A DNA stretch of 64,000 nucleotides from Planctomycetota bacterium (GTDB lineage: Bacteria > Planctomycetota > UBA1135 > UBA2386): positions 2,595,166 through 2,659,165 of the forward strand of contig JADJWQ010000006.1 in assembly GCA_016716265.1 (NCBI GenBank), given 5' to 3'. The number at the start of each line of letters is the position of its first letter. The stretch's first letter is position 1. The notes beneath the pieces are model-generated. The model made no database searches and had not been told where the DNA came from. It saw only the letters and a list, made by a program, of their open reading frames with translations. The position numbers were made by a program, and so were the translations under genes. Of this stretch, positions 14,944 to 56,012 are shown in pieces.

Positions 14944-17931
14944 TCAACGGTCCACAGCGAGGATCTCCAGCCATGCCGCCTGCCGGCCGCGGATCCAGAC
15001 CGCGGCATTGCCGCCGGCGCTCCATCTCGGCAGCGAGGACATGCCGGGCACGCCCCGTGTCACGACCTGGCGCGCCTGCCGGTCGTAAACGTGCACCGGG
15101 CTGCCCTCCGCTGCGCCACCGTAGCTGAAGAAGTAGAACCGCTCGCCGTCCGGGGCCCACGCGCCGATCCAGTCCCAGGAGTCCGACTGCTGGATCGCGA
15201 CCTCGGTCGGCCGGCCGTCGAGCCACGCGAAGCGGATCTGCGAGTCGTTCGCCGGGCCATAGTCGACGTAGGTCACGAACTCCCCGCTCGGATGCCAGAC
15301 CAGACCTTCCTTGTAGCGGGCCTCCTCCGGTGGCGTCATGCGGGTCAGTTCGCCAACCGGGAACGCGATCGCGAACGCGGTGTTCACATGCGCTGCCAGG
15401 TCGGCGTCGGTCGCGTAGCCGAGCGCGGCGATGAAGTCACCGTTCGGCGACCACTCGAGTGTGCCGTCCCAGCGCGGAAGCCGGGCCAGCTCCCGCGGCG
15501 CGTCGCTGCCGTCGGCGGCCACCACGAGGACACTGCGGCCGTCGACGTACGCGAGCCAGCAGCTGTCGGGAGACCAGCGGATCCAGACCGGGCACGAGGT
15601 GCGCGCGAGCACGCGCAGGTCACCGCTGTCGATCGACTGCACGCAGACCTCCGCACGGTCCGGATCGCCCGTCGTCCAGGACGAGAACGCGATCCGCGTG
15701 CTGTCCGGCGCCACGTCGTAGAGCGTGCCGAAGGACATCACGCCCAGCGGGCCCGAGGCGTCGTAGGCAGCACTGGTGAGCAGACGAGCCGCCCCGCCGC
15801 CTCGCGGCATCGCGAACAGGCCGCGCTGGCCGGAGACCTCACCGATGAAGAACACGGTCCGTCCGTCCGCCGACAGGCGCGGGGCACGGCCGCGCGTGTG
15901 CTCCGTGCCTTCCTCGAAGCGGTCCCCCGTCGTCGTCCAGACCGTCGCGGTGTCACGGCGCACGCCGACGAGGAGCGCGCCATCCGACAGGAAGCGCGGC
16001 GCGACGAATCCCTCGTTGTGCAGGAACGTCACCCGTCGTGGTGCGGCGGTCGCGCGACCAGTCTCGCCGTCGACCGCCAGCCTCCAGATGTCGCTCCCGC
16101 TCGCCGCGGGAGTCGTGCCGCTCGCGACGAACCAGACCGAGCGACCGTCCGGTGCCCACACGGGCTGGTGGCAATCGTCCGGCGTCGTCGTGAGCTGCCG
16201 GCTCGAGCCGCCGACGCGTGGGACGAGCCAGAGGTCGCTCCGGGGCGGGCCCTCGGACCGAGTTGCGTCGACCACCAGCCAGCGGCCGTCGGCGGACCAG
16301 CCGCCGAGTGAGCTGACCGGTGGCAGGTCCGTCGGGTGCCGGCGAACCGTGCCGCCGACGAGCCGGATACTGTCGATGCGGTCCGTCAGGCACGTGATCT
16401 CGTGTCCGTCGGGCGTCCAGCAGACGTCTCGGATTCGCGCACCTCGCTCGGGTGCTGGCAGCGCCTGCTCGATCCGCGCCTCCGCAGCGTTCCAGACGAG
16501 CACGAACTGCTCCGCCTCGCCCTGCCGATTGCCGACCGCGGCAATCCGGAGGCCATCGGGTGACCAGCGCGGCGCAGTGCATCGGAACTCGGCGATGTCG
16601 TCGGGTCCGCCCCCGCCGCCGAGCGGCCGGCCGATTCCGGTCACGCGGTCCCAGACGCGCAGCCGAAAGCCCACCGCGTAGACGATCTGCGCTCCGTCCC
16701 CGAGCGCGTCGAACGTCCTTCGGCTGCCGGCATCGCTCAGAACGTCGGGGATGTCGATCGGCATCCGCTGCGCGAGTCGCGGTCGCGTATCGGTGTCCTC
16801 CGACGGGAGGAACAGAATCGCGGCGAGCACCGCAAGAGCGGAGGCGGCGAGCCAGGGCCACCGTCCTCGTCCGAACCACGAAGGCAGCCTGCGCGCCACT
16901 CTCGCTCGGACCGCCTCGCCGGCCAGGTGGCGGCGCAGGTCCGCCGCGAGATCGAGAGCGGAGCCGTAGCGCCGCGTCCGGTCGACGGCGATCGCCTGCA
17001 GCACGATGTCCCGGAGCGGTCGTGGGATCGAGTCGGCCCTCGCCACCGCATGGGCCACGTCGGGCGAGGCGAACGTCCGGACCGCCTCGGCGAGGCTCGT
17101 CGGCGCCCCGTACGGCAGTCGGCCGGTCAGCAGCTCGTGGAGCATCACGCCGAGCGAGTAGACGTCGCTCCGCCTGTCGATCGCCGGCGTGCCCCCGAGC
17201 TGCTCCGGGCTCATGTAGGGGATCGTCCCGCCCGGCGACGCGAGCACGGATCGGGACAACGAGACGTTGCCGTCCGGGCGCAGGAACCGCGCGAGCCCGA
17301 AGTCGAGCACGCGCGGCCGACCGTCGCCGTCGACGAGCACGTTGGTCGGCTTCACGTCCAGGTGGACCACGCCGCGCTCGTGCGCGTGGTGGATCGCCTC
17401 CGCGGTCTGCGCGATCAGCTCGAGGCGTCGCTGGAGCGACGCCGACGTACGCGCACAATGGCGATCGAGGGGTTCGCCCTCGACCAGCTCCATCACGAGA
17501 TACAAGAAGCCGCCGTCGCGTCCGGCGTCGTGGATCACGACGAGGCACGCGTGTCGCAGCTTCGCGAGCGCCTGGACCTCGCGCTCGAAGCGGCGCAGGT
17601 CGCCTGCCGTGGACGGGCCGACCGGTCGTAGGACCTTCAGCGCCACGCGGCGCGCGGGGTTCGGTTGCTCGGCCTCGTACACGACGCCCATGCCGCCCTC
17701 GCCGAGGCGACGGACGATGCGGTAGGGCCCGATCGATGCGGGCAGCGGGGTCGGGTCCGCGCTGCACAGCGCGGTCAGTCCTTCGTGGACGCGCCGCAGC
17801 CGCTCGAGGCATTCGCGGCACGATGGGCAGGACTCCACATGCGCCCGCAGCTCGCGCGGCGCGTCCGCGTCGGGGTCGTCCAGCAGGTCCCAGAGCTGAG
17901 CTTCGTCGATCGCACAACTCCGGGGTTCCAT
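14944..17931 (-). CDS. Ser/Thr protein kinase with N-terminal zinc-finger (anti-sigma-like) region, TM segment and C-terminal TolB/WD40-like beta-propeller
   Basis: HVESCPSCREC motif. Kinase subdomains GEGGMGVVYEA, VALK, HRDVKPTNVLV, DFGLAR and PYMSPEQ. Hydrophobic segment WLAASALAVLAAILFL. Long propeller-like C-terminus. Convergent with the ECF sigma gene. Confidence 0.85.
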   Translation of the reverse strand: MEPRSCAIDEAQLWDLLDDPDADAPRELRAHVESCPSCRECLERLRRVHEGLTALCSADPTPLPASIGPYRIVRRLGEGGMGVVYEAEQPNPARRVALKVLRPVGPSTAGDLRRFEREVQALAKLRHACLVVIHDAGRDGGFLYLVMELVEGEPLDRHCARTSASLQRRLELIAQTAEAIHHAHERGVVHLDVKPTNVLVDGDGRPRVLDFGLARFLRPDGNVSLSRSVLASPGGTIPYMSPEQLGGTPAIDRRSDVYSLGVMLHELLTGRLPYGAPTSLAEAVRTFASPDVAHAVARADSIPRPLRDIVLQAIAVDRTRRYGSALDLAADLRRHLAGEAVRARVARRLPSWFGRGRWPWLAASALAVLAAILFLPSEDTDTRPRLAQRMPIDIPDVLSDAGSRRTFDALGDGAQIVYAVGFRLRVWDRVTGIGRPLGGGGGPDDIAEFRCTAPRWSPDGLRIAAVGNRQGEAEQFVLVWNAAEARIEQALPAPERGARIRDVCWTPDGHEITCLTDRIDSIRLVGGTVRRHPTDLPPVSSLGGWSADGRWLVVDATRSEGPPRSDLWLVPRVGGSSRQLTTTPDDCHQPVWAPDGRSVWFVASGTTPAASGSDIWRLAVDGETGRATAAPRRVTFLHNEGFVAPRFLSDGALLVGVRRDTATVWTTTGDRFEEGTEHTRGRAPRLSADGRTVFFIGEVSGQRGLFAMPRGGGAARLLTSAAYDASGPLGVMSFGTLYDVAPDSTRIAFSSWTTGDPDRAEVCVQSIDSGDLRVLARTSCPVWIRWSPDSCWLAYVDGRSVLVVAADGSDAPRELARLPRWDGTLEWSPNGDFIAALGYATDADLAAHVNTAFAIAFPVGELTRMTPPEEARYKEGLVWHPSGEFVTYVDYGPANDSQIRFAWLDGRPTEVAIQQSDSWDWIGAWAPDGERFYFFSYGGAAEGSPVHVYDRQARQVVTRGVPGMSSLPRWSAGGNAAVWIRGRQAAWLEILAVDR

Positions 17932-18149
17932 CGTCGCACTCGTGGACTCGCCGACGTCCGCCGCGGCTCGCGACCACCGATCGCCAGCCGCGCGAGATGG
18001 TAGCGCGGTTCGGGCATCGGGAGAGGGCTCGCGTCCGGGCGGCCCGGTGGGGCGGGCCGGGATTCGAGGTCCGCGCCGGCTGCCCGGGTGTGCTGGTCTC
18101 CAGGTCGCGCGTAGGCGGCCGAGAACCACGAGTCACGAGGAGGATCCGC

Positions 18150-19113
18150 ATGAAAGTCGCGCGTCGAACACGGAACTGGCCGATCTGGTCGGCCTGTGCA
18201 GTCCTGCTGGTTGCCGGTGCGGCCAGAGCGCAGGGAAACGGCCGTGGTGGCGATGGCGGTGGCGGTAGTGGCAGCAACGGCGGCAACGCCGTCCAGTCGG
18301 ACATCCCGGCGGTCCTCGACGTGACGGACCCGTTCGTGCCGCCGAGCCCGCCGACCGTCGGGAGCCTGTCCGCGGACGTCGCCGGGCTGGGCTACGACTG
18401 CTGGGTGGGGCGCCGTCGGACGATCACATTGACGCTCGCCCGGCGCAGTCCGCGGTCGATGCGCCTGATCCTCGGACCGGAGCTGCCTCCGGACCCAAAC
18501 CCGCTCATGGACAACCCATGGAACAGCCCGCGCGTGTACTTCGGCGCTGGCATCCCGAATCCGTCCTTCGGTCCCGACGGCGTCGCGGACACCCCGGACG
18601 ATCACGAGATCACGGAGGTCTCGATGCAGATCGCGGGGTGGGAGAACGTGTCGGCACTCGGCGCCTTCGCGACGGACGCATCGAGCTACAGCGACGCGGA
18701 CGGCAATCCGATCGTCGTCGATCCGCAGGATCCTGCGACGTTCAGCCACATGGCGACGACGATGCGCATCAGCTTCAAGGTCGGACAGCACATGTGGCGG
18801 CTGGACTTTCGGGACACCGCGCCACGTCGGCACCGGCCGGTTGCCGACGCATCCGGACACCGGGCCGGTCGTCATCCGCCGGTGGTTCGGGAACGGACCC
18901 GCCGACCCGAACGACCCTGCGGTGCCGTGGGAGGTCCGCATCGAGCCGTGGTGGGGGAACGACCCCGCGGTTCCGCGCACCGGCATGGTCGTCGGTTTCC
19001 TGAACTACCTCGGAACCGGCGGGAACACGACGGGAGGGTATGCCGGCGCGTACGACATCCGCTGGTCGGCCGAAGACTGGCCGAGCTGCTGGACCGCCTG
19101 GGCTGCGCAGTAG
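18150..19113 (+). pseudogene. secreted protein gene interrupted by a frameshift (or sequencing error) near 18813..18863
   Basis: GAGGAGG RBS precedes ATG 18150. Signal peptide MKVARRTRNWPIWSACAVLLVAGAARAQ. Frame A is protein-like up to about ...MWRLDFRDT, then turns Arg-rich. The protein-like continuation (VVIRRWFGNGPADPNDPAVPWEVRIEPWWGND...AAQ*) sits in the +1 frame as ORF 18841..19113. Confidence 0.45.
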
Positions 19114-19311
19114 CGACGGCCGGCGCACGGATTCCGCGGGCCGCGGCTCGCGCTCGCGTGTGCTCCCGGACGGCGGGCGCCATGCCGCACCCGCAACGCC
19201 CGAATGACATCGGAGCCCGTGGATGACCTCGCTCTCGCGCGCGTCGCAATCGCGGTCCCCGCTGTCCGGCCGGCTGACGACGCTCTTCTCCGTCGCTGGC
19301 GATTCTCGGCT

Positions 19312-19325
19312 AATCGGCGCCGATT
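19312..19325. promoter_or_regulatory. perfect 14-bp palindrome AATCGGCGCCGATT in a low-GC upstream region
   Basis: It lies in the 428-bp intergenic region 19114..19541. That region has noticeably lower GC than its surroundings and precedes CDS 19542..21161. This is a candidate dimeric transcription-factor site. Confidence 0.25.
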
Positions 19326-19541
19326 GGCGGCACCTCCGGGGATCGAAAGAACCCGTACCGATCAACCCACGCAAACCGTCTCACCACGGAGGTCGATCTC
19401 ATGCGATCGTTCTCGAACTCGCGTCTCCGACTCGGCATCCCCCGGGGTGTATCCATCACGTTCACTGACAGGTCCTGCTACGAGGCTCAGGCACCAGCAC
19501 CTCACTCCTCGCGCCTCCGCTCTGCACGGTCGAGACCGACC

Positions 19542-21161
19542 GTGCGATGGTGGACGTGCCTACTGGTAGCCGTCCTGGCCCTCGCGTCTCCCGTGGCCGC
19601 GCAGAGCGCGTCGCTGACGACCACCTATCGATATGACGGCTTGGGCTACGGCGGCAACGGCGTCTTCTTCGATCTTCAGGTCCACGTGCCGGTCACGATA
19701 GACCGACTCGAGGCGAGCATAACGAATCGTCACCGGGTCGGCACCATCGAGCTGTGGTCGATCCCCGGCGGGCACTCCCTCGCCAACATCACGTCGACGA
19801 ACGGCTGGACCATGCAGGGATCGGCGACGGTGGTTTCCGAAGGCATCGGCGCGCCCTCCAGCGTCGTGTTCACCGACGGATCCGGAAATCCGGCGCCATT
19901 CACGCTGATGCCTGGACTGTACGGAATCGCCCTCTGCTACCAGAATCACGCCCCGGCCTACTCGACCTCCCCCCCGAACAATCGGGTCTACTCCAACAGC
20001 GACATGACCCTGACCGCAGGCTCGATACAGAGTGCCTACTTCGTCACCCCTAGGGCCGGTGCGGCCATATGGAACGGCACGATCTACTACACCGTCTCCC
20101 CGGCCTGGGCAACGTGGCAGTCGTACGGCACAGGCTGTCCGAGCACCTGGGCCGCGTTCTACGAGGGCTTCGGGGGTGCGGTCGATCTGGCCGGTGCGCC
20201 CGGCTCGGAGGGTGTCGTCCGGCTGGATCCGGTCGGGTCCGGATACCTCGTGACGATCGACAGTCCGGCGTGGCACACGCCGACGAGTGCTCCGCTATCT
20301 TTGGGAGACGACACGAACAGCGCACCCCAGTTGCTCCCGTTCACTCTGTCCTATCCGGGTGGGTCGACCAATCGCGTCATCGTCGGGTCCAATGGATATG
20401 TCTACCTCGGTTCAGGTGTGAGCGCACAGGCGTACTATGGGCGAAGGTCCCTGTTCCTCACCGATGGTCCCCGACTCGCAGCCTTCTGGGGCGATCTGAA
20501 TCCCGCCGCAGGTGGCTCGGTGCACTTCGACGTGGACCCGTCTGGCAATGCGGCGTACGTCACCTGGTTGGCGGTACCCGAATACGCGGTGCCGAACGCC
20601 GTGAGCACGTTCCAGATATGTATCCGGTCGAGTGGCATCATCGACTATCGGTACCGGTCCTGCGTGGTCGGTTTCGCCCAGGCGATCGCCGGCTGGAGTC
20701 CCGGCCGTGGCGTCCCCGAGCCCGAGCCGATCGACATCTCCGCAGCCGCCGCGGCGGGATTCGTCACCGGCCCGGATGCGAGGCCCATCACGCTGGGATG
20801 CACCGGCCGCCCGGTCCTCGGTCAGGGCATCAGCCTGGACGTCGCAGGCATACCCACCAACACCGCGCTCGCGGCCGTGTTGATGGGCTTCGGACGGACC
20901 CCGGCACCGGGTCTCTCGCTCGACAACCTGTTCGGCGGCACGGAGGGCTGCTTCCAGCACGTGACGGCCCCTCTGCTGACGGCCGGAGCGCTGGTCGGGC
21001 CCATGTCGACCGGCAGCATCGCGCTGACCGTCCCACTGGATCCGAGCTTCGCGGGCGGCCTGCTGTTCAACCAGGCCGTCGCAGCCATCAGTCCGCCGGC
21101 GTACACGACGAGCGGCCTGATCACCAGCAATGGTGTATGGCTCCTCCTCCAGGGTCTGTGA
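19542..21161 (+). CDS. secreted hypothetical protein with the shared C-terminal module
   Basis: In-frame GTG at 19542 gives signal peptide (V)RWWTCLLVAVLALASPVAAQ. The upstream ATG at 19401 would add a 47-aa Arg-rich leader. Protein-like composition over 540 aa. Confidence 0.6.
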   Translation: MRWWTCLLVAVLALASPVAAQSASLTTTYRYDGLGYGGNGVFFDLQVHVPVTIDRLEASITNRHRVGTIELWSIPGGHSLANITSTNGWTMQGSATVVSEGIGAPSSVVFTDGSGNPAPFTLMPGLYGIALCYQNHAPAYSTSPPNNRVYSNSDMTLTAGSIQSAYFVTPRAGAAIWNGTIYYTVSPAWATWQSYGTGCPSTWAAFYEGFGGAVDLAGAPGSEGVVRLDPVGSGYLVTIDSPAWHTPTSAPLSLGDDTNSAPQLLPFTLSYPGGSTNRVIVGSNGYVYLGSGVSAQAYYGRRSLFLTDGPRLAAFWGDLNPAAGGSVHFDVDPSGNAAYVTWLAVPEYAVPNAVSTFQICIRSSGIIDYRYRSCVVGFAQAIAGWSPGRGVPEPEPIDISAAAAAGFVTGPDARPITLGCTGRPVLGQGISLDVAGIPTNTALAAVLMGFGRTPAPGLSLDNLFGGTEGCFQHVTAPLLTAGALVGPMSTGSIALTVPLDPSFAGGLLFNQAVAAISPPAYTTSGLITSNGVWLLLQGL

Positions 21162-21619
21162 TCCTCGCGGACCGACGGCCGTGCAGAGCTGTGGCCCGCC
21201 CGCGTTCATGGGGATCGGCACGCAGCTCGACGACGTGAAGAGCGCCGACATCGCCTGGCTACCGTGACGGCGTATCCGGTGGCGGCCCATCGCATCGCGG
21301 AGCGACTCGATCTGCCTGGCGCCAACGGGTTTCGGCGCAGTGCTCGCCGTCACTTCGATCACGATCACGCGTCCACCGCCGAAACCGGCGAGCAGATCGA
21401 TCTCGAGGCGATCGCCCTGGTCACGTGACTGGTAGCGGCGGGGCCGACACCGGGACAGCGGGATCTCGGCACGCAGCCGCGACACGACGAGCGTCTCCGG
21501 CCTCCGGCCGCCTCCGTGGAGGTTCGGCCGACCATCGATGGACCGCCACGCGGGCCGGTGGCGCGGAGGTTGGCCCGGTTCACGCTCGGTTCCGAGGATC
21601 CGATCCAACACCGCCCTGG

Positions 21620-21752
21620 CAACGCATTCAGCCAGATCTCCGCGGCCCCGTTCGGATCGGCGCCGGTCGGCCGCGTGTCGAGCAGCAGCGCGTCGAGCCC
21701 GACCGGTCTCGCATTCGCCAACACCGGCCTCGTCATCGGCCTGCGCTGATGC
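21620..21752. repeat. copy B of the 133-bp direct repeat (orphan 3' gene fragment)
   Basis: Near-identical to 13941..14073. Upstream similarity extends weakly to about 21600 (NAFSQISAAPFGSAPVGRV versus NAFTQVFAAPYGPAPVGRV). No intact gene ends here. Confidence 0.85.
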
Positions 21753-21818
21753 CCACACGCCGCTGGCGCCGGCCGCGAGGCGGCGGGACGATGGCGGTCC
21801 CCGTCCCGCACGGCGCCC

Positions 21819-23057
21819 ATGCAGCGAGCCGATCCGCACCTCGACCGCCGCCACTTCCTCGGCCTGACGGCCGCCGCCGGTGCGGCAGCGCTCCGACCCG
21901 CACTGCGCGCAGGTGCCCGCGTGCAGGAGCCGCCGCCCCACCTGCGTGGCCATGCCGAGCTGTTCGCGCGCGACCCGCGCGCCGCAGCCGTCGCGTGGTT
22001 CGCTGAGGCGCGGTTCGGCCTGTTCATGCACTACGGGCTCTATGCGCTGCTCGGGCGCGGCGAGTGGGTGATGTTCCGGGAGCGGATCCCGGTCGAGCAG
22101 TATGCGAAGCTCCAGCAGCGCTTCGCGCCCGACGCGTTCGACGCCGACCGCATCACCGACCTCGCGCTACAGGCCGGCATGCGCTACGTGAACATGACGA
22201 GCCGCCACCACGACGGCTTCTGCCTGTTCCACTCGGCGATGACCGAGTTCACGAGCGTGCGTTGCCCGGCGCGGCGCGATCTCGTCGGCGAACTGGCGGA
22301 GCAATGCCAGCGCAAGGGCCTCGGCCTGTTCCTGTACTACAGCTACGCGCTCGACTGGCGCCACCCGTGGTACTACTCGCGCGCGCACAGCGACATCGCC
22401 CGGCCCGACTACGTCGAGCCCGATCCCGCCTACCGCTGGCAGCGCGACGCGGACTTCGCACGCTACATCGACTACGTGCACGCCCAGCTCCGCGAGCTGC
22501 TGACCGGCTACGGACCGCTCGCCGGCCTCTGGTTCGATCCGATCATGGGCTTCTATGCGCGCCCGGACCTGTTCCCGGTCACCGAGACCTACGCGCTGGT
22601 CCGCGCGCTGCAGCCGCATTGCCTGATCTCGTTCAAGCAGGGTGCGACCGGCACCGAGGACTTCGCGGCTCCGGAGCGCCACGGCCGGTCGCTCGCCGAC
22701 AACGTACAGCGCCGCTTCGGCGACCCGGAGCGCACGCGCGTCGCGGCCGCCGCCTGGGAGGCGAACCGCGACAAGCACAACGAGATCTGCGACACGCTGC
22801 AGCCGGGCGTGTGGGGTTACCGGGCGGCCGACGACGGCAATCACCGCGGCGCCGACGAGACCTGGACGATGCTGCGGCAGGCGGGCGCGGCGCGCTGCAA
22901 CCTGCTGCTGAACACCGGCCCGCTGCCCGACGGCTCGCTACACTCCGACGACGTCGCGACGCTGCACGCGGTCGGCCGACGGATCGCGGCCGAGGGCTAT
23001 CCGTCGGACCGAGCCGCCCGAGGACTCGATGCGAACCGATTCCGATCGAAGCCGTGA
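21819..23057 (+). CDS. alpha-L-fucosidase (glycoside hydrolase family 29), Tat-signal
   Basis: Twin-arginine-like DRRHFLGLTAAAGAAAL. GH29 N-terminal signature FGLFMHYGLYALLGRGEWVM. 412 aa. Confidence 0.85.
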   Translation: MQRADPHLDRRHFLGLTAAAGAAALRPALRAGARVQEPPPHLRGHAELFARDPRAAAVAWFAEARFGLFMHYGLYALLGRGEWVMFRERIPVEQYAKLQQRFAPDAFDADRITDLALQAGMRYVNMTSRHHDGFCLFHSAMTEFTSVRCPARRDLVGELAEQCQRKGLGLFLYYSYALDWRHPWYYSRAHSDIARPDYVEPDPAYRWQRDADFARYIDYVHAQLRELLTGYGPLAGLWFDPIMGFYARPDLFPVTETYALVRALQPHCLISFKQGATGTEDFAAPERHGRSLADNVQRRFGDPERTRVAAAAWEANRDKHNEICDTLQPGVWGYRAADDGNHRGADETWTMLRQAGAARCNLLLNTGPLPDGSLHSDDVATLHAVGRRIAAEGYPSDRAARGLDANRFRSKP

Positions 23058-23400
23058 GAGTGGACGACGGCTGCGCGCCGCGCTCCGCTGCGTCGCGCTG
23101 GGCGCGCTGCTCGCGTTGCCGAGCTGCTTCACCGCCGCGCTGTGGGGCGTCGACGTGTTCGGCGCCGACGAAGAGTTCCCCGACCCGCCGCCGGCCGCCG
23201 GAGCGGACGAGTCGGACGTCGACTGGTCCACCGAGGCGATCATGGGACGGGTCCTGCTGACCCCGATCGCGGTGGGTCTCGACCTGCTCACCTGCCCGAT
23301 CCAGGCCTGGCTGCTCGGCCTGGCCGACGACGACGACGAAGGTCACGATCGCCGGCGCCGGCGCCGCGACCCGGATCCGTGCATCCTACCCGCGCATTGA
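23029..23400 (+). CDS. small hypothetical membrane/lipoprotein
   Basis: Signal-like LRAALRCVALGALLALPSC and a second hydrophobic helix. A degenerate partial copy of this gene occurs at 23860..24010, which argues that it is a real coding sequence. Confidence 0.4.
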   Translation: MRTDSDRSRESGRRLRAALRCVALGALLALPSCFTAALWGVDVFGADEEFPDPPPAAGADESDVDWSTEAIMGRVLLTPIAVGLDLLTCPIQAWLLGLADDDDEGHDRRRRRRDPDPCILPAH

Positions 23401-23656
23401 GGCCCGCGCGTCAGCGCCCCGCGCCGGCCGGGTGCGCATGAGCACGGTCACCGTCCGCGACGACCGGCTCCAGCCGGCCGTGCCATGGCCGGGGACAAGG
23501 CGGATCGTGACCTGCGGATGCTGATCGAGGCTCGGTCCCCGGTTCCACCGCCCTGTCCCGATCGATGGCCTGGTTTCGATCCGCGACGCCCGCGATTTCA
23601 ATCTGCCGGGCTCCAAACCCGCAAACTGCAGGACGATCTGCCTGGGCTCCATCACC

Positions 23657-23880
23657 ATGGAAGCCGGGCGGATGTACCCGCGCCACATCGCCTGGCGCCT
23701 CGCCGAGGCGCTGGAAGACTCGCCGGTGGTGCTCATCCACGGCCCACGGCAGTGCGGCGAGACGACGCTGGCCCGAGTGTGGGGGGAGCCCGAGGGCCAC
23801 GCGTACCGTTCGCTCGACGAGGCAGTGACGCTCGAGGCCGCGCGCCGCTGCATCGCGCTGGTGCGCCAGGGGCGCTGCTC
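23657..23880 (+). pseudogene. N-terminal fragment of an AAA+ ATPase (COG1373 / AAA_14-DUF4143 family)
   Basis: YPRHIAWRLAEALEDSPVVLIHGPRQCGETTLARVW...YRSLDEAVTLEAARR matches the conserved N-terminus of this ATPase family (HGPRQCGETTL is a Walker A GxxxxGKT-like variant). Only about 75 aa are present, after which the sequence diverges. Confidence 0.45.
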
Positions 23881-24010
23881 GCATTGCCAAGCGGGTTCGC
23901 CGACGGCTTTGGGGCGTCGACGTGTGAGCCGACGACGACGACCGCCACGATCGACGGCACCGCCGCCGCGACCCCGATCCGTGCGTCGTCCCCGCGCATC
24001 GAGGCCGGCG
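23860..24010. repeat. degenerate partial duplicate of CDS 23029..23400 (5' and 3' parts, internal deletion)
   Basis: ggcgcgctgctcgc.ttgcc...ggggcgtcgacgtgt...gacgacgacga...cgcgaccc.gatccgtgc.tc...cccgcgcat.gaggcc.gcgcgtcagcgccc is shared with 23095..23440. Encoded peptide GALLALPSGF... versus GALLALPSCF... Confidence 0.7.
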
Positions 24011-24012
24011 CG

Positions 24013-24897
24013 TCAGCGCCCCTCGCCTGCCGCGTGCGCGTGACCGCGGTCGAACAGCAACGTCGCCAGCAGGCGTCGCGCGGCCCCGACGAGCGCGGCG
24101 TCGGCGGACGCCGGACCGTCGAGCAGGGCGGTCAGCTCGGCTGCAGCGCTGCGCGGCTCACCGTGGTCCGCGAGCGCGCGGGCGTGCAGCAGCCGCTCGT
24201 CGCCGCTGCGGTCCGCGGCCGGCACGGCGTCGAGCAGCGCGAGTGCATCGGCCGGGCGGCGCTCGGCGAGCAGTACGCGGGCGGCCAGTGCGCGGGGCGC
24301 CGGGTCGCCGCAGCCGGCGAGCGCTGCGCGCATCGCCCGCACATCACCGCGCGCCTCGTGCACGCGGACCGCGAGCTCGGCGTCGGCGGGCGCGCGCAGC
24401 AGCGACGCGGCCGCGGCGTCCGGCAGTCCGAGCTCGAGCTCGAGCCGCGCGCGGCGCAGCCAGTCGGCAGGCGTGAGGCGGGCACGCCGACGCAGCGCAT
24501 CGAGCTCCGGAGCCGCGCGGCGCGCCACCGCGACGAACGCAAGCCAGTCGGCGGCCGACGCGCCGGCGGGCAGGCGCGCGAGCAGCGCACCGTCGGCGGC
24601 GAGCGCGAAGGTGCCGCAGCCGCGTGCGACGGCGGCGAGTTCTGCCGGCAGCTCCGCGATGGTCAGCTCGGTGAGGTCGACGCGCTCGGCGAGCGCCCGG
24701 ACGTCGCGGCGCGCGAGCACCTCGCGGTCCATCGCGTCGCTGACCGGCCGGCCCGGCCAACGCACGTGCACGAAGCGCAGCGGCGCCGCCTGCGACCCGT
24801 CGCCAGCCGCGCCTTCGCTCCGAGCCGCACGTCCGCACGCGACGACCGCGCAGCACAACGCGATCGACGCCGCGCCTCGTGCGCGGCGCGCGATCAC
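24013..24897 (-). CDS. hypothetical Ala/Leu-rich (TPR-like) lipoprotein, translationally coupled to the upstream C45 gene
   Basis: GTG start overlaps the TGA stop of the C45 gene in the sequence GTGA. Lipoprotein-like signal RRARGAASIALCCAVVAC. Confidence 0.5.
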   Translation of the reverse strand: MIARRARGAASIALCCAVVACGRAARSEGAAGDGSQAAPLRFVHVRWPGRPVSDAMDREVLARRDVRALAERVDLTELTIAELPAELAAVARGCGTFALAADGALLARLPAGASAADWLAFVAVARRAAPELDALRRRARLTPADWLRRARLELELGLPDAAAASLLRAPADAELAVRVHEARGDVRAMRAALAGCGDPAPRALAARVLLAERRPADALALLDAVPAADRSGDERLLHARALADHGEPRSAAAELTALLDGPASADAALVGAARRLLATLLFDRGHAHAAGEGR

Positions 24898-26192
24898 CGC
24901 CCGCCGTCCCCCGCCGCCGCGACGCCCCCCCGCTCCGCCTCGCCGATCAGCGCGCGGATGTCGAGCCCGTCGGCGCGGTCCCAGGCATCCTCGGCCTCCC
25001 CACGCCGCATGCGGACGCCGAACGAGCCGGTGCCGAGGTCGGCGACGCACTGGTAGAGCGTCGTGTCGACCTGCGGCAGCCCGATCGTGCGCCAGGCGGC
25101 GGCCACGTCGAGCACGCTCGAATCACCGCCCGTCAGCGCCCGCTCCAGACGGTCGTAGCGCCAGCAGCGCGGATGCTGGCTCGCTCCGTTGCCCTGGCTC
25201 GGCAGGCGGTGGTGGTTCGTGCAGGCGATCCAATCCGCGCCATCCTGCGGCTCGCGGATCGTGAACTCGTGCTCCGCCGTCGATCGCGTGTCGATCTCGA
25301 GGACGACCGCGCCCGGCGCGTCACCGGCCCACGCGAGCATCACGTTGCCGCCCATGCCGACGCGGTAGCCATGCGCGATGCGCACGGCCTGCTCCGCGGC
25401 ATCGGCCGCCGGACCGAGGCGCTCGACGATCTCCTGCAGCACCAGCGGCCGCGGCGTCACGCGGCGCTCGCCACGGAGCTTCATGAACACGTCGTGCACG
25501 GCGACGGCGACGCCACGCTCGCTGACGGCGGTCAGCACGCCGACGCTGCCCGGCCAGCCGATCTCGACGAAGCCGGCGCGGCCCTCGGCGGGAGCGTGGA
25601 CCTTGACCATCGTCTGCTGCAGCAGCTCGGGCGTGCTGAAGTAGTCGAGATTGCGGCCGACGACGGGAGCGCCGGTCGCGGTGCGAGCCCCAAAGGCCGC
25701 GAACGACGAGCAGGCGAGGCCGGCGATGTCGGGAATCGCGGCCACGCCGAGCAGGTCGTCGACGGTCAGGTCGCGCCGGAGCTCGGGAATCTCGAGCAGG
25801 TCGACGTCGCGCGCGGCGACGCCGTCCAGCAAGCCTCGGCAGCGCTCCTGCACGCGCTCGGGGAAGGTCATGCCCGTGCGCACCTTCGGGAGCACGCCGA
25901 CGTTCCAGCCGGCTGCGCCCCCCGGGACCATGCCGCTCGCGAGCAGGCTGCGGAAGCCGCGGGCCGTCTCGGCGGCCATCAGGTAGCCCTCGGCGAAACC
26001 GCGCTCGTAGTCGGTGCCACGCAGGAACAGGACCTCGACGCCGTCGATCGTGCGGCGGTGGCCGGTCAGCTCGACGGTCGCCGGGGTGGCCTGCGCGACC
26101 AGCTGCGGCACGCACTGCACCGCGAAGGACAGCGCGAGGGCGGCGGCGAACGCATGGGCACGGAGCGGCGGCAGATGGTGACTTGGCTTCAT
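24894..26192 (-). CDS. peptidase C45 family Ntn-hydrolase (acyl-CoA:6-APA acyltransferase-like), secreted
   Basis: Signal peptide [35 protein letters not shown]. Conserved Gly-Cys nucleophile context [11 protein letters not shown]. 432 aa. Confidence 0.75.
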
Positions 26193-26308
26193 GGTCCTCG
26201 GGATTCCCCGCGCGCGGCAGCAGGGCGGGGGCAGACGGGCCAGCAGGCTATCGCCGACTCGCGCGTGTCGGTAGGTGCACCCGCCCCGCTATCCTGCGCG
26301 GTGTCGCC

Positions 26309-28462
26309 ATGACCACCCCCGACTTCACGTCCCTGCGCTACGAGGACTTCGCCGCTCTCCCGCAGCCCGCCGCCGACCCCAACGCGGCACCCGGCCGCGT
26401 GACGACGACGCCGGAGGGCATCGACGTCCAGGGGGCATACGGGCCCGCCGACGTCGCCGGGCTCGACGCGCAGCTCGACTCCCTGCCGGGGTTCCCGCCG
26501 TTCGTGCGCGGGCCGTACCCGTCGATGTACGCGGGCCGGCCGTGGACGATCCGCCAGTACGCGGGGTTCTCGACCGCCGAGGAGTCGAACGCGTTCTACC
26601 GCCACAATCTGGCGATGGGCCAGCAGGGCCTGTCGATCGCGTTCGACCTCGCGACGCACCGCGGCTACGACTCGGACCACCCGCGCGTGATCGGCGACGT
26701 CGGCATGGCGGGGGTCGCAATCGACTCGATCCGCGACATGCGGATCCTGTTCGACGGGATCCCGCTCGATCGGGTGTCGGTGTCGATGACCATGAACGGC
26801 GCAGTGATCCCGATCATGGCGCTCTACGTCGTCGCTGCGGAGGAGCAGGGCGTGCCGCCGGAGCGGCTCAGCGGGACCATCCAGAACGACATCCTGAAGG
26901 AGTTCATGGTCCGCAACACCTACATCTACCCGCCCGGGCCCTCGATGCGGATCATCGGCGACATCTTCGCATGGTGTGCCGAGCACATGCCGAAGTTCAA
27001 TTGCATATCGGTCAGCGGCTATCACATGCAGGAGGCCGGCGCGACCGCGGACATCGAGCTCGCCTACACGCTCGCCGATGGCATGGAGTATCTGCGACAG
27101 GGCGTGAAGGCCGGTCTGGCGGTCGACGACTTCGCGCCCCGCATCTCGTTCTTCTGGGCGATCGGCATGGACTTCTTCATGGAGGTCGCCAAGCTGCGCG
27201 CCGCACGGCTGCTGTGGGCACGCATCGTGAGCTCGTTCGGCAGCACCAATCCCAAGTCGCTCGCGCTGCGCACGCACTGCCAGACTTCCGGCTGGTCGCT
27301 CACCGAGCAGTCGCCGTGGAACAACGTGGCGCGCACCTGCGTCGAGGCGCTCGCCGCCGCCAGCGGCGGCACGCAGAGCCTGCACACCAATGCCCTCGAC
27401 GAAGCCATCGCGCTGCCGTCGAACATGTCGGCGCGCATCGCCCGCAACACGCAGCTCGTCCTGCAGAACGAGAGTGAGCTGTGCCGGGCAATCGATCCGT
27501 TCGGCGGTTCGTACCACGTCGAGCGGCTGACCGCCGACCTCGCGGAACGCGCCTGGTCGCTGATCCAGGAGGTCGAAGAGCGCGGCGGCATGGCGGCGGC
27601 GATCGAGACCGGCCTGCCGAAGCTCCGTATCGAGGAGGCCGCGGCACGGCGACAGGCGCGCATCGATGCCGGCAAGGACGTCATCGTCGGCGTCAATCGC
27701 TACCAGGGTGCCGGTGACGAGCCGATGGACATCCTGTCGGTCGACAACCGGAAGGTGCGCGAGGCGCAGCTGCGCAGGCTCGCGGAGCTGAAGGCGGAAC
27801 GCGACACAGCCGCGGTCGGGTCGAAGCTCGCAGCATTGACCGACGGTGCGCGCGGCCACGCGAACCTGCTCGGACTCGCGATCGACGCGGCGCGCGCCGG
27901 CGCGACCGTGGGCGAGATCAGCTCCGCGATGGAAGAGGTGTTCGGTCGCTACCAGGCCCAGGTGCGCACGATCGGCGGCGTCTACGCGAGCGAGGTGCAG
28001 GACCTCGAGCCGGTGCGCCGCGTGCAGGCATCGACCCGCGAGTTCGCACAGCGGGAAGGACGCCGCCCGCGGATCCTGGTCGCCAAGATGGGCCAGGACG
28101 GTCACGATCGCGGTGCGAAGGTGATCGCGACCGCGTTCGCCGATCTCGGCTTCGACGTCGACGTCGGACCGCTGTTCCAGACGCCCGAGGAGGTCGCGCG
28201 TCAGGCGGTCGACAACGACGTGCACATCGTCGGCGTGTCGTCCCTCGCGGGTGGTCACCGCGAGCTGGTGCCCGCCCTGGTCGCGGAGCTGCGGCGGCAG
28301 GGCGCCGACGACGTGCTGGTGGTCGTCGGCGGTGTGATTCCGCGGCAGGACCATGCGGCCCTCGAGGCCGCCGGGTGCGCCGCGGTGTTCGGCCCCGGTA
28401 CGGTGATCCCGGAAGCCGCGGAGCGCCTGCTGAAGATCCTCGCCCGGCGCCCCGCCGACTGA
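26309..28462 (+). CDS. methylmalonyl-CoA mutase (fused catalytic + B12-binding domains)
   Basis: Conserved MCM substrate-domain motifs ([30 protein letters not shown]; [15 protein letters not shown]; [10 protein letters not shown]). C-terminal cobalamin-binding domain ([23 protein letters not shown]...[13 protein letters not shown]). 717 aa. Confidence 0.9.
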
Positions 28463-33385: not shown

Positions 33386-35962
33386 GTGCGACCCGCTCCG
33401 AATTACCGGCGATCGCTGCTCGCCGCCGCCACGCTGCTCGCGCTCCCCGCCACGGCCCAGGCCCCGCTCGCGTGGCGGACGCTGCCCCCGCTTCCCGATC
33501 CGGTCGGTGTGGCAGGCGCGTTCGCCGGCGTCTCGGACGGCGCACTACTGGTCGCCGGCGGCGCCAACTTCCCGGGCGCGGCGCCGTGGGACGGTGGCCC
33601 GAAGATCTGGCACGATCGGGTCTGGATGCTGGCGGCACCCGACGACACCTGGCGGGAGGTCGGCAGGCTACCCGCGCCGCGCGCCTACGGCGCTTCGTTC
33701 GACACGCCGCAGGGCGTGCTGTGCGCCGGCGGCAGCGATGCGGGGTCGCATTCCACCGACTGCATGCTGCTGCGCGCGCGCGGCGGCGGCCTCGAGATCA
33801 CGCCCGCGGCACCGCTGCCGTTCCCGCTCGCGAACGCCGCGGGCGCCGTCGTCGGGAGCACCGCCTACGTCGTCGGTGGTAGCCGCGCGCCGACCGCGAC
33901 CACCGCGGCGGCGGAGCTGCTCGCGATCGACCTCGACCGGCTGGAGGCGGGGTGGCGGCAGCTCGAGCCGTTGCCGGGCGAAGGCCGCATCCTGCCGGTG
34001 GCCGCGGCGCAGGGCGGCACCTTGCTGGTGCTGTCGGGCGCTGCATTGAGCGCCGGTCCGGACGGCACACCGCAGCGCCGCTATCTGACCGAGGCCTGGA
34101 GCTACACGCCGGGTCGCGGCTGGCGGCGCCTTGCCGACCTGCCGCGCGCCGCGGTCGCGGCACCATCGCCCGGTCCGATCGTCGGCGCGAGCCACGTGCT
34201 CGTGCTCGGCGGCGACGACGGGAGCCGCGCAGGACAGCCGGCCGGCCCGGCGCACCCGGGCTTCCGCCGCGACGTGATCGCCTACCACACGATCACCGAC
34301 ACCTGGACGTCGCTCGCGACGATCCCTGCCCCGCTCGACGCAGCCGTCACCGCGCCGGTCGCGCGTTGGAACGACCGGTTCGTGATCGCCAGTGGCGAGA
34401 TCCGCCCGGGTGTGCGCACGCCGCAGGTCGCCACCGTCACCATCGAGAGCTCGCGCGCGTCGTTCGCGTGGCTCGACTGGCTGGTGGTCGTCGTCTACCT
34501 CGGCGGCATGGTCTGGATCGGCGTGTGGTTCATGCGCCGCGACGCCGCGGCGTCCACGGACGCCTGGTTCCGCGGCGGCCAGCGCGTTCCCGCCTGGGTC
34601 GCCGGATTGTCGATCTTCGCGACCATGCTCAGCGCGCTGACCTTCATGGGCATCCCGGCGCGCGCCTACCAGACCGATTGCTCGTGGTACCTCGGACAGC
34701 TGCCGCTGCTCGTCATCGTGCCACTCGTGGTGTTCTGCTACCTGCCGTTCTTCCGTCGCCTCGACGTGACATCGGCGTACGAGTACCTCGAGCGCCGCTT
34801 CGGGCTCGCCTGCAGGCTGTTCGCCTCGCTGTCGTTCATGCTGTTCCACATCGGCCGAATCGCGCTGGTGCTGTACCTGCCGGCGCTCGCCCTCGCGGCC
34901 GTGTCCGACATCGACGTCACCACATCGATCCTCGTCATCGGTGTTCTGTGCCTCGTCTACACTGTGCTCGGTGGCATCCAGGCCGTGATGTGGGCCGACG
35001 CAGTGCAGGCCGCCGTGCTGCTGCTCGGCGCCGGGCTGTGCGTCGTGCTCGCCGTCACCCGCGTCGACGGGGGGCTCGGCGGCGTCGTCGACATCGCGCT
35101 GCGCGACGACAAGCTGCTGCAGGGCGTCGATTGGACCTCGCTCGACATCCGCGACGGCACGGCGTCGGGGCTCGTGATCTTCGTCGCGTTCGGCTTCAAC
35201 TCGCTGGTCTCGTACACATCGAGCCAGGACGTCGTACAGCGCTACGTGACGACGCGAGATCTCCCCGCCGCACGGCGCTCGCTGTGGATCAACATGTGGA
35301 TGTCCCTGGCCGGCTCCGCGTTGTTCTTCGTGCTCGGCGTCGCGATCTACGCGTTCTACAAGATGCAGCCAGCCGAGCTCGACCCGGCGCTCACGGCGAC
35401 CGACTCGATCCTGCCGCACTTCATCGTCGCCGAGCTGCCGACCGGCATCGCCGGCCTCGTCATCGCGGCGATCTTCGCGGCATCGCAGTCGACGATCTCA
35501 TCGTCGCTCAACAGCATCGCGACGGCGTTCGTGACCGACATCGACAAGCGACTGTTGCGGCCGGCACGCGACGACCGCGCCTACCTGCGCAGCGCACAGG
35601 TCGTCGCGGTGGTCGTCGGGCTCGCTGCGATCGGCGTCGCGCTGTGGATGGCGACGGCGCGGATCGAGTCGGCGTTCAAGACGTTCAACACGCTGATCGG
35701 CCTGACCGCCGGCTCGCTCGGCGGTCTGTTCGCGCTCGGCGTGTTCACGCGCCGGGCCAACGCCTCCGGCGCATTGGCCGGTGCGCTGCTCGGGCTCGCG
35801 GTCGTCGTCGCGCTGGAGCTGTCGAACGCCGCGGTCACCGGGATCCTCTACGCGTTCGTCGGGCTCTCGACCTGCGTCGGTGCGGGGCTGCTCCTCAGCT
35901 TCGTGCTTCCCGGACGCGCCGATGCGAGCCTGTCGCTGCGCACCCGCGTCACGCGCCGCTGA
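33386..35962 (+). CDS. fusion protein: N-terminal Kelch/NanM-like beta-propeller (sialic acid mutarotase-like) + C-terminal sodium:solute symporter (SSS family) transporter
   Basis: GTG start at 33386 precedes signal peptide [18 protein letters not shown]. Six Kelch-like repeats ([52 protein letters not shown]). Then 13 TM helices with SSS features ([32 protein letters not shown]). 858 aa. The start codon is uncertain. Confidence 0.75.
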
Positions 35963-37559
35963 AGAAGTCGTTGCCCTTGTCGTCGACGACCAGGAACGCC
36001 GGGAAGTCCTCGACGTCGATCCGCCAGATCGCCTCCATCCCGAGCTCCGGGAACTCGACGACCTCGACCTTCTTGATGTTCTCCTGCGCGAGGATCGCCG
36101 CCGGACCACCGATCGAACCGAGGTAGAAGCCCCCGTGCTTCCTGCACGCGTCGGTGACCGCCTGCGAGCGATTGCCCTTCGCGAGCATCACGAAGCTGCC
36201 GCCGTGCTGCATGAACAGATCGACGTAGCTGTCCATGCGGCCGGCGGTCGTCGGCCCGAACGAGCCGGACGCGTAGCCGGCGGGCGTCTTCGCGGGTCCG
36301 GCGTAGTAGACGATGCTCTGCTTGAAGTAGTCGGGCAGCCCGCGCCCGGCGTCGATGCGCTCCTTCAGCTTCGCGTGCGCGATGTCGCGCGCGACGATCA
36401 ACGACCCGCTCAGCGAGAAGCGCGTCTTGATCGGGTACTTGGACAGCTCGGCACGGATCTCCTCCATCGGCCGCCGCAGGTCGAGTCGGACGACCTCGCC
36501 GCCGAGCTCCGCCTCGTCGATGTCCGGCAGGTATTGCGCCGGCTGCGTCTCGAGCTGCTCCAGAAACACGCCGTCGCGGGTGATCTTCGCCAGGATCTGC
36601 CGGTCTGCCGAGCACGACACGCCCATGCCGATCGGACAGGACGCGCCGTGGCGCGGTAGCCGCACGACGCGCACGTCGTGGCAGAAGTACTTGCCACCGA
36701 ACTGCGCCCCGATACCGAGCCGCTGCGTCATCTGGAGGACCTGCTTCTCGAGACCGGTGTCGCGGAACGCGCGGCCCAGCTCGTTACCGGTCGTCGGCAG
36801 CCCGTCCAGGTAGCGGGCACTGGCGAGCTTCACGGTCTTCAGCGTCGCTTCCGCCGACGTGCCGCCGATCACGATCGCGAGGTGGTAGGGCGGGCACGCC
36901 GCGGTGCCGAGCGAGCGCACCTTCTCCTCCAGGAAGGCCAGCAGCGAGCGTTCGTTGAGCACCGCGCGCGTCTGCTGGAACAGGAAGGTCTTGTTCGCGG
37001 AGCCGCCACCCTTCGTCATGAACAGGAAGCGGTACTCGCTGCCCTTCGTCGCGTACAGCTCGACCTGTGCCGGCAGGTTGGTGCCGGTGTTCTTCTCGTC
37101 GTAGGTCGTCAGCGCCGCCATCTGCGAATAGCGCAGATTGGTGCCGACGTAGGTGTCGAACACACCGCGCGACAGCGCCGCCTCGTCGTCGCCGTTCACC
37201 AGCACACGGTCGCCACGCTTGCCGATCACGATCGCGGTGCCGGTGTCCTGGCACGACGGCAGCACCATGGCAGCGGAGACGTTCGCGTTCTTCAGCATCT
37301 GCAATGCGACGAAGCGGTCGTTCGCCGATGCCTCCGGATCCTCGAGGATCGCACGGAGCTGCGCGAGGTGACCGGGCCGGAACAGGTGCGAGACGTCGCG
37401 GATCGCCTCGCTCGCGAGACGGGTCAGCACGGCCGGCTCGACCTCGAGGAACTCGACCCCCCCGTGCGTCGCGATGCGCACGCCGTCGGCCCCGAGGCTT
37501 CGATACGGCGTCGCGTCCGGCGCGGACTCGAACAGCGTCTGGTGCTGGAACGCGGTCAT
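35949..37559 (-). CDS. fumarate hydratase class I (Fe-S dependent)
   Basis: Start [11 protein letters not shown]. Conserved class I fumarase blocks ([13 protein letters not shown]; KGGGSANKT; [12 protein letters not shown]; TGDARD-like C-terminal domain with [17 protein letters not shown]). 536 aa. Confidence 0.9.
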
Positions 37560-37718
37560 GCGCGCACCGTACGCACGGCACCGCAGCGAAGCGAGCGCGG
37601 CGATTCCCGGGGTGCCACCGGCCTCGCCCTCACGAGCGGGGCGCCGCGCAGCTCCCGTCGTGGTCGGGATCCCGGAGCCGCCGCCGGCCTGCATGGCGGG
37701 CCGAGACCGCCCGGCGCG

Positions 37719-39206: not shown

Positions 39207-39271
39207 GCGGCCGGGCGGCGGGCTCATGCCCCGTGAGTGTACCGACGGGGCCGGACGCTACGCTGCCCGAC

Positions 39272-41027
39272 ATGCGACCTTCGCACCGCCCGACTCCTCC
39301 CGCGAACCGGCGGAGCTTCGGTCCACGCCGGCGTCGCGCCGTCGCATCGCTGCTGATCGCCGTGGCGCAGGCTGGCGCGCAGGACCGGCCCCCGACGCTC
39401 CCGGCGGGACTGTTCGACGAGCTGGAGCTGCTGTATCCGGACACGCCGGTGGCGAGCGGCGCAGACACGCTCCACGTCGACGTTCCGCGCGGCAGCTTCG
39501 CGGCGGCACACGTGCTGATCGCGCCGGGCGCACCGGCCGACCAGCCGGCCGACGCGCTGCTCGAGGTCCGCTTGGACGTGACCGGCCTGCCGCTCGGAGC
39601 ACCCGTCCTGTATCGCCTCGTCAGCGTCCCGGTCGAGGAGAACACCGGCATCGAGAGCCGCACCGAGCGCTGGGACGGTCGCACCAATCCGTTCGTCGTG
39701 CGGCGCGCGCCGTTCCGAGTGTTCGAGGCGATGGCCCCCGCGACCTCGCCATTGCGAGGCGAGGACTCGACGCTCGCGCTACGCATCGAGCTGACGGTCC
39801 CGCCCGACAGCGACCCGGGCAGCCGATCGGTGTCCGTGACCTTGCAGCGCGGGAGCTCCCGCGCCGAGCTGGAGCTCGACGTGACCGTATACGCGTTCGT
39901 CGTACCGCCCACGGGCCGCGATACGACTCGCTACACGAACTGGTTCAGCCTCGGCCGGATCGCCACGGACCGTGGCGTCGAGCCGTGGAGCGAGCCGTTC
40001 TGGGACGCGCTCCAGAGCTGCGCGCGGCTGATGGCCCGCGGGCGGCAGAACACCTTCTGGGTGCCGTGGAGCGCGATCTTCGAACGTGGCGCGGACGGCC
40101 GCCCGCGCCTGCTCACCGAGCGATTGGCACGCTACGTCGCGACGTTCGAGACCGCCGGCCTGTGGTGGATCGAGGGCGCACCGTTCGCGCGACGGCCCGG
40201 CGGCGACTGGTCGCGGCCCGATCTCGAGCTGTCGATCGTCGACCTGCCCGCTGCGAGCGAGGCGGGCCGTGCCGCGCTCGCCGACATGGCGGGTCAGCTC
40301 GCTCGCATGATCGAGGCACGTGGCTGGCGTGACCGCTGGCTCCAGCACATTGCCGACGAGCCGACCGACACCAATGCCGTCGCATATCGCGAACTCGCAG
40401 ACGTGTTGCGCGAGCACCTGCCCGGCGTGCCGATCGTCGAGGCGACGATGTGTCGGACAGTGGCCGGCGCCGTCGACATCTGGTGCCCGCAGGTGCACCG
40501 GTTCCAGGCGCACCGGGACTTCTTCGCGGAGCGGCGCGCGCTCGGGGAGCGCGTGTGGGTCTACACCTGCCTCGTGCCCGGCGGACCCTGGCTCAACCGG
40601 CTCCTCGACCAGGAGCGGCTGCGGCCGGTGCTGATCGGCTGGGCGCTCGACCGCTTCGACCTCGACGGGTTCCTGCACTGGGGCTTCAACCACCAGCGCA
40701 CCGACCCGTTCGCGCAGAGCGTCGTGCCCCACGGCTCCGAGCCGAACAACCGGCTGCCGGCGGGCGACAGCCACATCGTCTTCCCGGGTCCGGGCGGCCC
40801 ATGGTCCGGCCAGCGCTTCGAGGCGCACCGCATCGGGCTTCGAGGACCGCGAGTGCCTGCGCGCACTGCGCGCGCGCGATCCTCGGCGGGCGGACGCGAT
40901 CGTCGGCTCGGTGCTGCGCGGCTTCGACGACTACACGACGAGCGTCGCCGACTACCGCGCGGCGCGCCGGAAGCTGCTGGAGGCAGCCAGCGAGGCCGGG
41001 CGCCGGGCCGGCGGGTGACCCCGCCCC
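39272..41027 (+). pseudogene. secreted (Tat-like signal) hypothetical protein, reading frame broken near 40816..40845
   Basis: Signal RRRRAVASLLIAVAQAGAQD. Frame 1 is protein-like up to ...WSGQRFE, then Arg-rich. The protein-like continuation GFEDRECLRALRARDPRRADAIVGSVLRGFDDYTTSVADYRAARRKLLEAASEAGRRAGG* is in the +1 frame and ends at the TGA at about 41025. Confidence 0.45.
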
Positions 41028-41094
41028 GCGGCCGCGCCGGTCTGGTAGCTTGTCCGCCCGAACCCGCCCGGGTGGGCGGGTCGACGCCCCCGTC

Positions 41095-42165
41095 ATGAAC
41101 GAACTCCTCCGCACCGCCGTCCGCGCGGTGGCCGTGGCACTGGCGTGTGCCGTGGCCGCACCCGCGCAGCGCCCGCAGCCGACGCCCGAAGAGCTGCAGA
41201 AGAAGTACGACGAGGAGCTCGCGCTCCCGTTCGTGCAGAAGGGCAACTGGATCGTCGACTACGACGAGGCCCGCGCCCGCGCCCGGCGGGAGGGCAAGCT
41301 GATCTTCGCCTACTTCTCACGCAGCTACGCCTATTGAGGGCCCTGCAAGGCCCTGGAGAGCCGTGCGCTCTCCGACGATCGCATCACCGCATTCACCGCC
41401 ACCGTCGTGCCGTTCCTGCACGTGACGACGCACATTCCGGGTAGGCCCTACGACGACCTGCTGCGGCAGAAGGGCTTCGGTGGCTTCCCGACGCTCTGCG
41501 TGATGGACGCAGACGGCGAGGTGCTGTACCAGCTGCCCGGAAGCGACCGCTCGATCGAGGGCTTCTACGCCGCGGTCGACCGCACCGAGCGCCTGCTGCG
41601 CGCCCGCAAGGCGGTCGAGACCGGCGAGCCCGGCGCACGCAACAAGCTCCTGCTGCTGTTGCTCGACATGGGACAGGTCGGCTTCGACGACGCGCTCGCG
41701 CAGGCGAAGGAGCTGACGCTCGATCCGGACGAGCAGATCGTCTTCCAGGTGCGCCTCGTCGAGACGCTGCGGCGGTTCCGCGGCGCGGACCTCGACGCGG
41801 CGATCGAGCGCGTCGACTGGCTGCCGGCGCCGCGGGCGCGCGCCGCGGAGATCCGCAGCGACACCCGCCTGATGGAAGACCTCGCCCCGCTGATGGCGCC
41901 GATCCGCGCTGTGCGACCGGGCGAGACGCCGGAGCCGCGGCCGTACGGAATCGCCTACGAGCTGTGGCAGCAGGGTCGCAAGCCGAGCCCGTCGTCGCCG
42001 GTCGAGATGCTGTATTGGGACGCCGTCCGGCGCGCGAGCGTGGAGCGGAAGGACCTCGCGGGGTTCGAGGACGCGGCAGCGGTGCTGCGCAAGCGGTTCG
42101 CCGACAACGCGGCCTACCTCGAAGGGCTGGACAAGGACCTCGCAACGCTCCGCGGCGGGCAATGA
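41095..42165 (+). CDS. secreted thioredoxin-fold protein with in-frame TGA (candidate selenocysteine, U-G-P-C redox motif)
   Basis: Signal peptide MNELLRTAVRAVAVALACAVAAPAQ. ORFs 40450..41337 and 41407..42165 are in the same frame and are separated only by the TGA at 41335..41337. Read-through gives ...KLIFAYFSRSYAY-U-GPCKALE...VVPFLHVTT...GFGGFPTLCVMDADGEVL, a canonical thioredoxin motif with the TGA at the first Cys position. The stop TGA overlaps the ATG of the downstream sigma factor (ATGA). Confidence 0.6.
41337..41373 (+). promoter_or_regulatory. SECIS-like hairpins immediately downstream of the in-frame UGA
   Basis: Hairpin 1, AGGGCC/CUGCAA/GGCCCU, spans 41337..41354. Hairpin 2, GGAGAGC/CGUGC/GCUCUCC, spans 41355..41373. 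Its apical loop lies about 25-30 nt after the UGA and contains GU, which fits the spacing of bacterial SECIS elements. Confidence 0.4.
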
Positions 42166-42737: not shown

Positions 42738-45576
<2,839 letters not shown>

Positions 45577-45683
45577 CGTTGCCCGCCCGCGTTTTTTCCG
45601 GCTCCGCGTGAGGGTCCCTGCGACGTCGCGGCGTGTCCGAGGTCGAAGCGCGCGGAATGGTCCGCGCCCGATCGAGACCTCCG

Positions 45684-46256: not shown

Positions 46257-46278
46257 CGGCGAGGCGTCCGAGCCACGC

Positions 46279-50320: not shown

Positions 50321-50371
50321 GCGGCGAAGAACCCCGCCGCGCCGCCCGTGTTTCTCGAGGTTCGGCCGGCT

Positions 50372-55966: not shown

Positions 55967-56012
55967 GCGGACGCCGGGCCCGGCTGATCGACGGGGTCCC
56001 GCCGCGAGATGG

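Follow-up and report, generated by a model that had tools for sequence, protein, structure and literature searches.

The analysed stretch of DNA, here referred to as the window, is 64 kb long with a G+C content of 72%. It contains two genes that change reading frame in mid-course (Table 1). The first, whose frame change is called site 1 below, encodes a signal-peptide-bearing protein of unassigned function. Its product matches no Pfam family, and no relatives of it were found in GTDB representative genomes. The protein family is very small, as a search with the protein reconstructed in the first-pass annotation of this DNA found 3 proteins among 5.8 billion. Divergent from this gene is one on the minus strand (14944-18129) for a 1061-aa Ser/Thr protein kinase fused to PD40 (TolB-like) beta-propeller repeats, and its neighbour on the plus strand (19401-21161) encodes 586 aa with a signal-peptide-like N-terminus and no Pfam domain.

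The second gene, with site 2, encodes a GH123-family glycoside hydrolase. Its start is either ATG 39272 or GTG 39362, the latter being called on an independently assembled contig described below, and its stop is TGA 41016-41018. Two other plus-strand genes of the window have unusual products. At 33386-35962, one 858-aa ORF has an N-terminal NanM-like Kelch propeller (PF24996, N-acetylneuraminate epimerase) and also carries a complete sodium:solute symporter (PF00474, residues 394-803), an arrangement that suggests a fusion of an epimerase with a transporter that would take up sialic acid. At 52840-55966, a protein of >1000 aa consists almost entirely of ELWxSDGTxAGT...DLxPG repeats, and has no Pfam match at E <= 0.001.

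Table 1 Features of the two frameshifted genes, in window coordinates
Feature	Position	Strand	Evidence
Gene for a signal-peptide-bearing protein, function unassigned, 320 aa if intact	18150..19113	+	L001 gene 474-1436; third-position GC
One extra base splitting the 18150..19113 gene into two frames	TTT 18807..18809	+	L001 has TT
First GGACACCG copy; true frame (G)GG ACA CCG = Gly-Thr-Pro	18812..18819	+	Unchanged in intact allele
35 nt mistaken for an insert, genuine coding sequence (RHVGTGRLPTHP)	18820..18854	+	Retained in P0001, aligned to P0003
Second GGACACCG copy; true frame (CC)G GAC ACC G(GG) = Pro-Asp-Thr-Gly	18855..18862	+	
GH123-family glycoside hydrolase gene with one-base frameshift	39272..41018	+	PF13320 on L002 product
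TT holding one extra T	40839..40840	+	Window GGGCTTCGAGG, L002 single T (GGGCTCGAGG)
9-bp direct repeat GCTTCGAGG, two copies, spacing 22	40815-40823 and 40837-40845	+	

The frame change in the first gene is evident from base composition. Up to ~18810, third-position GC in the frame that begins with ATG 18150 is 0.80-1.00; from there on it is the +1 frame that has high values (0.85-0.92), so that the coding frame moves from one to the other between about 18810 and 18860. An HMM-style frame segmentation of the whole window places the switch at 18818/18819 in the first gene and at 40839/40840 in the GH123 gene. The first-pass annotation had described a switch from frame A to the +1 frame in the gene starting at 18150, and both measures confirm it.

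The annotation explained this switch by a 43-bp out-of-frame insert flanked by 8-bp direct repeats of GGACACCG, which it placed at 18813..18820 and 18856..18863. The repeat pair is there on the plus strand, its copies being 43 nt apart, but the coordinates were one base too high. A looser form of the repeat extends to 15 nt at 87% identity (TCGGGACACCGCGCC / TCCGGACACCGGGCC); nothing beyond the 8-mer and this 15-nt form matches at site 1, where tandem duplication is absent. The two copies of GGACACCG differ in codon phase. When 18820-18862 (43 nt) is removed, an open frame reading ...MWRLDFRDTGPVVIRRWFGNGP... is obtained, and the arithmetic by which a 43-bp deletion restores the frame is therefore correct.

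What the intact gene looks like was seen in a Logan assembly of run SRR11674018. A 4010-bp contig of this assembly (L001) aligns to window positions 17677-21687 over 4011 columns with 0 mismatches and 1 gap. The single gap sits at 18807-18809, where the window has TTT (GGACTTTCGGG) and the contig TT (GGACTTCGGG), and the extra T lies three bases upstream of the first GGACACCG copy. The protein encoded by the contig (P0001) is uninterrupted and has 320 aa, not 306, reading ...MWRLDFGTPRHVGTGRLPTHPDTGPVVIRRWF... across the site. It follows frame 0 through LDF and then the +1 frame, with the 14 residues of the supposed insert included.

A homologue of 338 aa with 48% identity (P0003) aligns continuously across the same junction (HRWRLFFGADNGYPADH-PTPPGTGPIFLQRIF). 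The residues of the supposed insert pair with ADNGYPADH-PTPP of this homologue, with a single 1-aa gap. Because the 35-nt segment is kept in P0001 and matched in P0003, the ‘43-bp insert’ is ancestral coding sequence. The true lesion at site 1 is one extra T, which lies outside the supposed insert. The comparison with orthologues for an uninterrupted frame, which the annotation had suggested as a check, was thus decisive, both proteins being encoded by single in-frame ORFs; an out-of-frame insert, a duplication and an excision footprint are all contradicted.

The GH123 gene has the same kind of lesion. Another contig of the same run (L002, 4995 bp) aligns to window positions 37218-42213 over 4996 columns with 0 mismatches and 1 gap, which corresponds to the one extra T at site 2. 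Its gene (1196-2851) encodes 551 aa with PF13320, and the match covers 324/324 profile positions at 126.8 bits (cut-off 23.1). The match of the window product ends at 315/324, exactly at the frameshift, with 119.9 bits. Completion of the GH123 domain here and the alignment of the 48%-identical homologue at site 1 contradict the possibility, which the annotation named as one that could overturn its proposal, that the downstream frame is not homologous.

The direct repeat at site 2 has a peculiar origin. With the extra T, GCTCGAGG becomes GCTTCGAGG and so matches, at every position, the 9-mer located 22 nt upstream. Without it, the two places of the intact allele have TCGAGG in common at a spacing of 21, and both copies are read in one codon phase (F-E and L-E). 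Since the repeat is perfect and out of frame only with the extra T, the ‘signature’ of site 2 is a by-product of the lesion. The annotation reported the same signature in a gene at 39272..41027; a repeat and a frame switch are indeed present, while the perfect form of the repeat is made by the extra T. Its suggestion that the two genes share a mechanism agrees with the finding of one kind of lesion in both, a single extra T. In each gene, then, the lesion is one base; there is an intact allele that is otherwise identical, and it is this allele that shows the homology.

How far such repeats exceed chance was estimated by counting. The window has 292 exact direct repeats of at least 8 nt with a spacing of 9-60 nt (4.6 per kb), compared with 155 (2.4 per kb) in block shuffles, and the spacing is in frame in 209 of the 292. 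For 8-mers, 7.4% of positions have a repeat pair with a spacing of 1 mod 3 no more than 70 nt away on either side; the share rises to 24% with 7-mers and to 58% with 6-mers. Borders will often be found by anyone searching for them, as a +1 insertion is compensated by the removal of any stretch with a length of 1 mod 3. The repeat at site 1 is accordingly a mild rather than a trivial coincidence, with a chance expectation of ~7%, and that at site 2 is self-made. Repeats at both sites are not far from chance. Incidentally, a hairpin in the 35 nt (CGTCGGCA / TGCCGACG, 8 bp) was considered as a structural element and rejected, as its energy is no better than that of shuffles (z = -0.82).

The comparison was extended to other contigs. 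Two of them are 100% identical to the window, one over 4856 bp (L003, window 21711-26566) and the other over 6880 bp (L004, window 43589-50468). The base-by-base comparison, which covers the 20,741 bp of L001-L004, shows 2 single-T insertions, each of which breaks a gene, and no substitution. A fifth contig of 13.8 kb (L005) lies outside this total, and was compared by gene coordinates and one product: the ends of all its genes correspond linearly to window 53060-64000, and one partial product of 968 aa has 100% identity with its counterpart in the window.

Across all 64 kb, frame segmentation with a check of stop codons revealed no further place where the frame changes on one strand without a stop codon. 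A third frameshift at ~33337 was considered and rejected, as a GFA-family gene ends at 33353 and a separate gene starts at GTG 33386. The frame signal is messy at 23400-24900, and an error there was also rejected, as L003 is identical in this region. Exact-pattern scans for either allele gave no match in GTDB representative genomes or JGI metagenome contigs.

The lesion at site 1 is also found in a deposited protein. NCBI lists ‘MAG: hypothetical protein IPM29_27485 [Planctomycetes bacterium]’ (P0002) from a contig of 4,121,898 bp, and this protein is letter for letter the frame-0 read-through of the window from 18459 to the stop at 19226 on the plus strand. The window thus comes from the deposited MAG or does not differ from it, and the MAG carries the same TTT lesion. 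The protein (255 aa) begins at an internal Met and turns into Arg/Pro-rich, out-of-frame nonsense after about residue 120, the out-of-frame tail making up the last ~135 residues. The call of the GH123 gene is wrong in a similar way.

We consider that both extra T's are most likely long-read consensus errors, with a probability of about 0.85, the Logan contigs serving as a proxy for accurate reads. Each gene differs from its intact allele by a single inserted T, which lengthens TT to TTT at 18807-18809 in one case and gives TT in place of T at 40839-40840 in the other; this T would be a consensus error that survived the polishing of a long-read metagenome-assembled genome. Such residual indels would fragment gene calls or drive read-through in a wrong frame, as in IPM29_27485, and nearby short repeats in coding DNA of 72% G+C would supply the apparent borders of 43-bp and 22-bp inserts. 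The ‘systematic assembly artifact’ that the annotation listed last among its alternatives is thus the best-supported explanation.

The pattern of differences points the same way. Two indels with 0 substitutions in 20.7 kb are the pattern of sequencing error and not of divergence, which would naturally give substitutions well before two frameshifts. The Logan contigs cross both sites unbroken, indicating that the intact allele dominates run SRR11674018. The MAG contig, being 4.12 Mb long, is presumably from a long-read assembly, and probably based on Nanopore. One large set of activated-sludge MAGs was produced with CANU, Racon, medaka in two rounds and Racon once more with Illumina data (PMC8012365). 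Such a pipeline would fit the present MAG, whose IPM29 locus tag may belong to the series of that project. Indels are known to persist in Nanopore consensus sequences and to lead to frameshifted gene calls, also where a MAG is rated as high-quality (PMC9262707).

Several traits of residual Nanopore indel errors are recognized at the two sites. There is a one-base homopolymer difference from an independent assembly with no substitutions, the gene call is split or in a wrong frame, correction gives full-length homology, and the assembly is highly contiguous. What differs is the length of the T runs, which are just 2-3 long, shorter than the long homopolymers where Nanopore errors classically concentrate. 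Both extra T's directly precede CG(G/A)GGAC, in TT[T]CGGGAC (18807-18817) and T[T]CGAGGAC (40839-40849). This shared context could be one in which errors recur, or it could be coincidental, two cases being too few to judge. An error at a CTCGAG methylation motif was considered for site 2, where the intact sequence is GCTCGAGG, and rejected as unlikely, as 101 CTCGAG in the window are called intact.

Other explanations take the frame changes or the extra segments at face value. Insertion or duplication of 43-bp and 22-bp segments between short direct repeats, whether by template switching, by illegitimate insertion or as an excision footprint, would account for the presence of the repeats and for the restoration of the frame by deleting one repeat with its spacer. 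It is scarcely credible, however, when neither the intact allele nor the 48%-identical homologue lacks the segment, so that there is no empty site, and when the window departs from the intact allele solely by one T that is not part of the segment. Moreover, the perfect repeat at site 2 is created by the extra T, and such repeats are common in this DNA. A search for other copies of the 35-nt segment, proposed by the annotation, found none when up to 3 mismatches were allowed across the 64-kb window, and plasmid records searched with the surrounding 261 bp gave no match. The likeness to a target-site duplication or excision footprint of a MITE- or IS-like element is only superficial, consisting of flanking repeats and a frame restored by removal; unlike such an insertion, the segment here is ancestral coding sequence, single-copy in the window and without significant terminal inverted repeats. 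Equally hard to credit is that the full-length protein is made through programmed +1 ribosomal frameshifting or through slippage during transcription of the T run. Short T runs are present at both sites and the downstream frame is intact and coding, and, as in +1 frameshifting of the prfB type, a full-length product would need a +1 shift at a short pyrimidine run. But the shift is conserved neither in the otherwise identical Logan sequence nor in the distant homologue, which are in frame; the two sites have no known shift motif, no shared slippery heptamer and no stimulatory structure, the local fold being no better than that of shuffles. For transcriptional slippage, runs of 2-3 T are far too short.

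The remaining explanations concern which of the two alleles is the true one. If the window were right, the Logan contigs would each have dropped one T. Nothing favors this beyond the formal symmetry of a pairwise difference, and it is very improbable, as with the Logan alleles the frame is open again and homologous to either side of each site (the 48%-identical homologue at site 1 and the GH123 domain at site 2), and two random deletions would not both repair genes. Alternatively, both alleles could be real, the T insertions belonging to a strain that dominates the long reads, with both genes being recent pseudogenes, and the Logan contigs coming from a sister clone or another sample. The TTT allele in the deposited MAG fits this explanation, but we regard it as unlikely, because two frameshifts would have arisen with no substitutions in 20,741 bp, the intact allele dominates SRR11674018 with contigs unbroken at both sites, and the read-through products of the window are encoded by no contig on record. 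Thus, that the version in the window is an error in the consensus rather than a real mutation is most likely.

The supposed insert is not real as a biological feature, and the case most likely belongs to a known class, that of residual long-read homopolymer indel errors. If the T insertions were real after all, which we think improbable, a natural clone of this uncultured planctomycete would only just have become unable to make two proteins, one rare and secreted and the other a GH123 glycosidase, and the shared context would hint at a sequence-specific mutational process. With consensus errors as the preferred reading, the MAG still holds single-base indels, at ~1 per 10 kb where checked and with 2 visibly broken genes in the 64 kb. 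There is also a trap for interpretation, in that near any +1 insertion in GC-rich DNA, a short direct repeat that ‘explains’ the frame is usually findable. In this genome, apparent pseudogenes, genes that are split and long ‘hypothetical’ tails such as that of IPM29_27485 are best taken for assembly errors unless reads prove them real.
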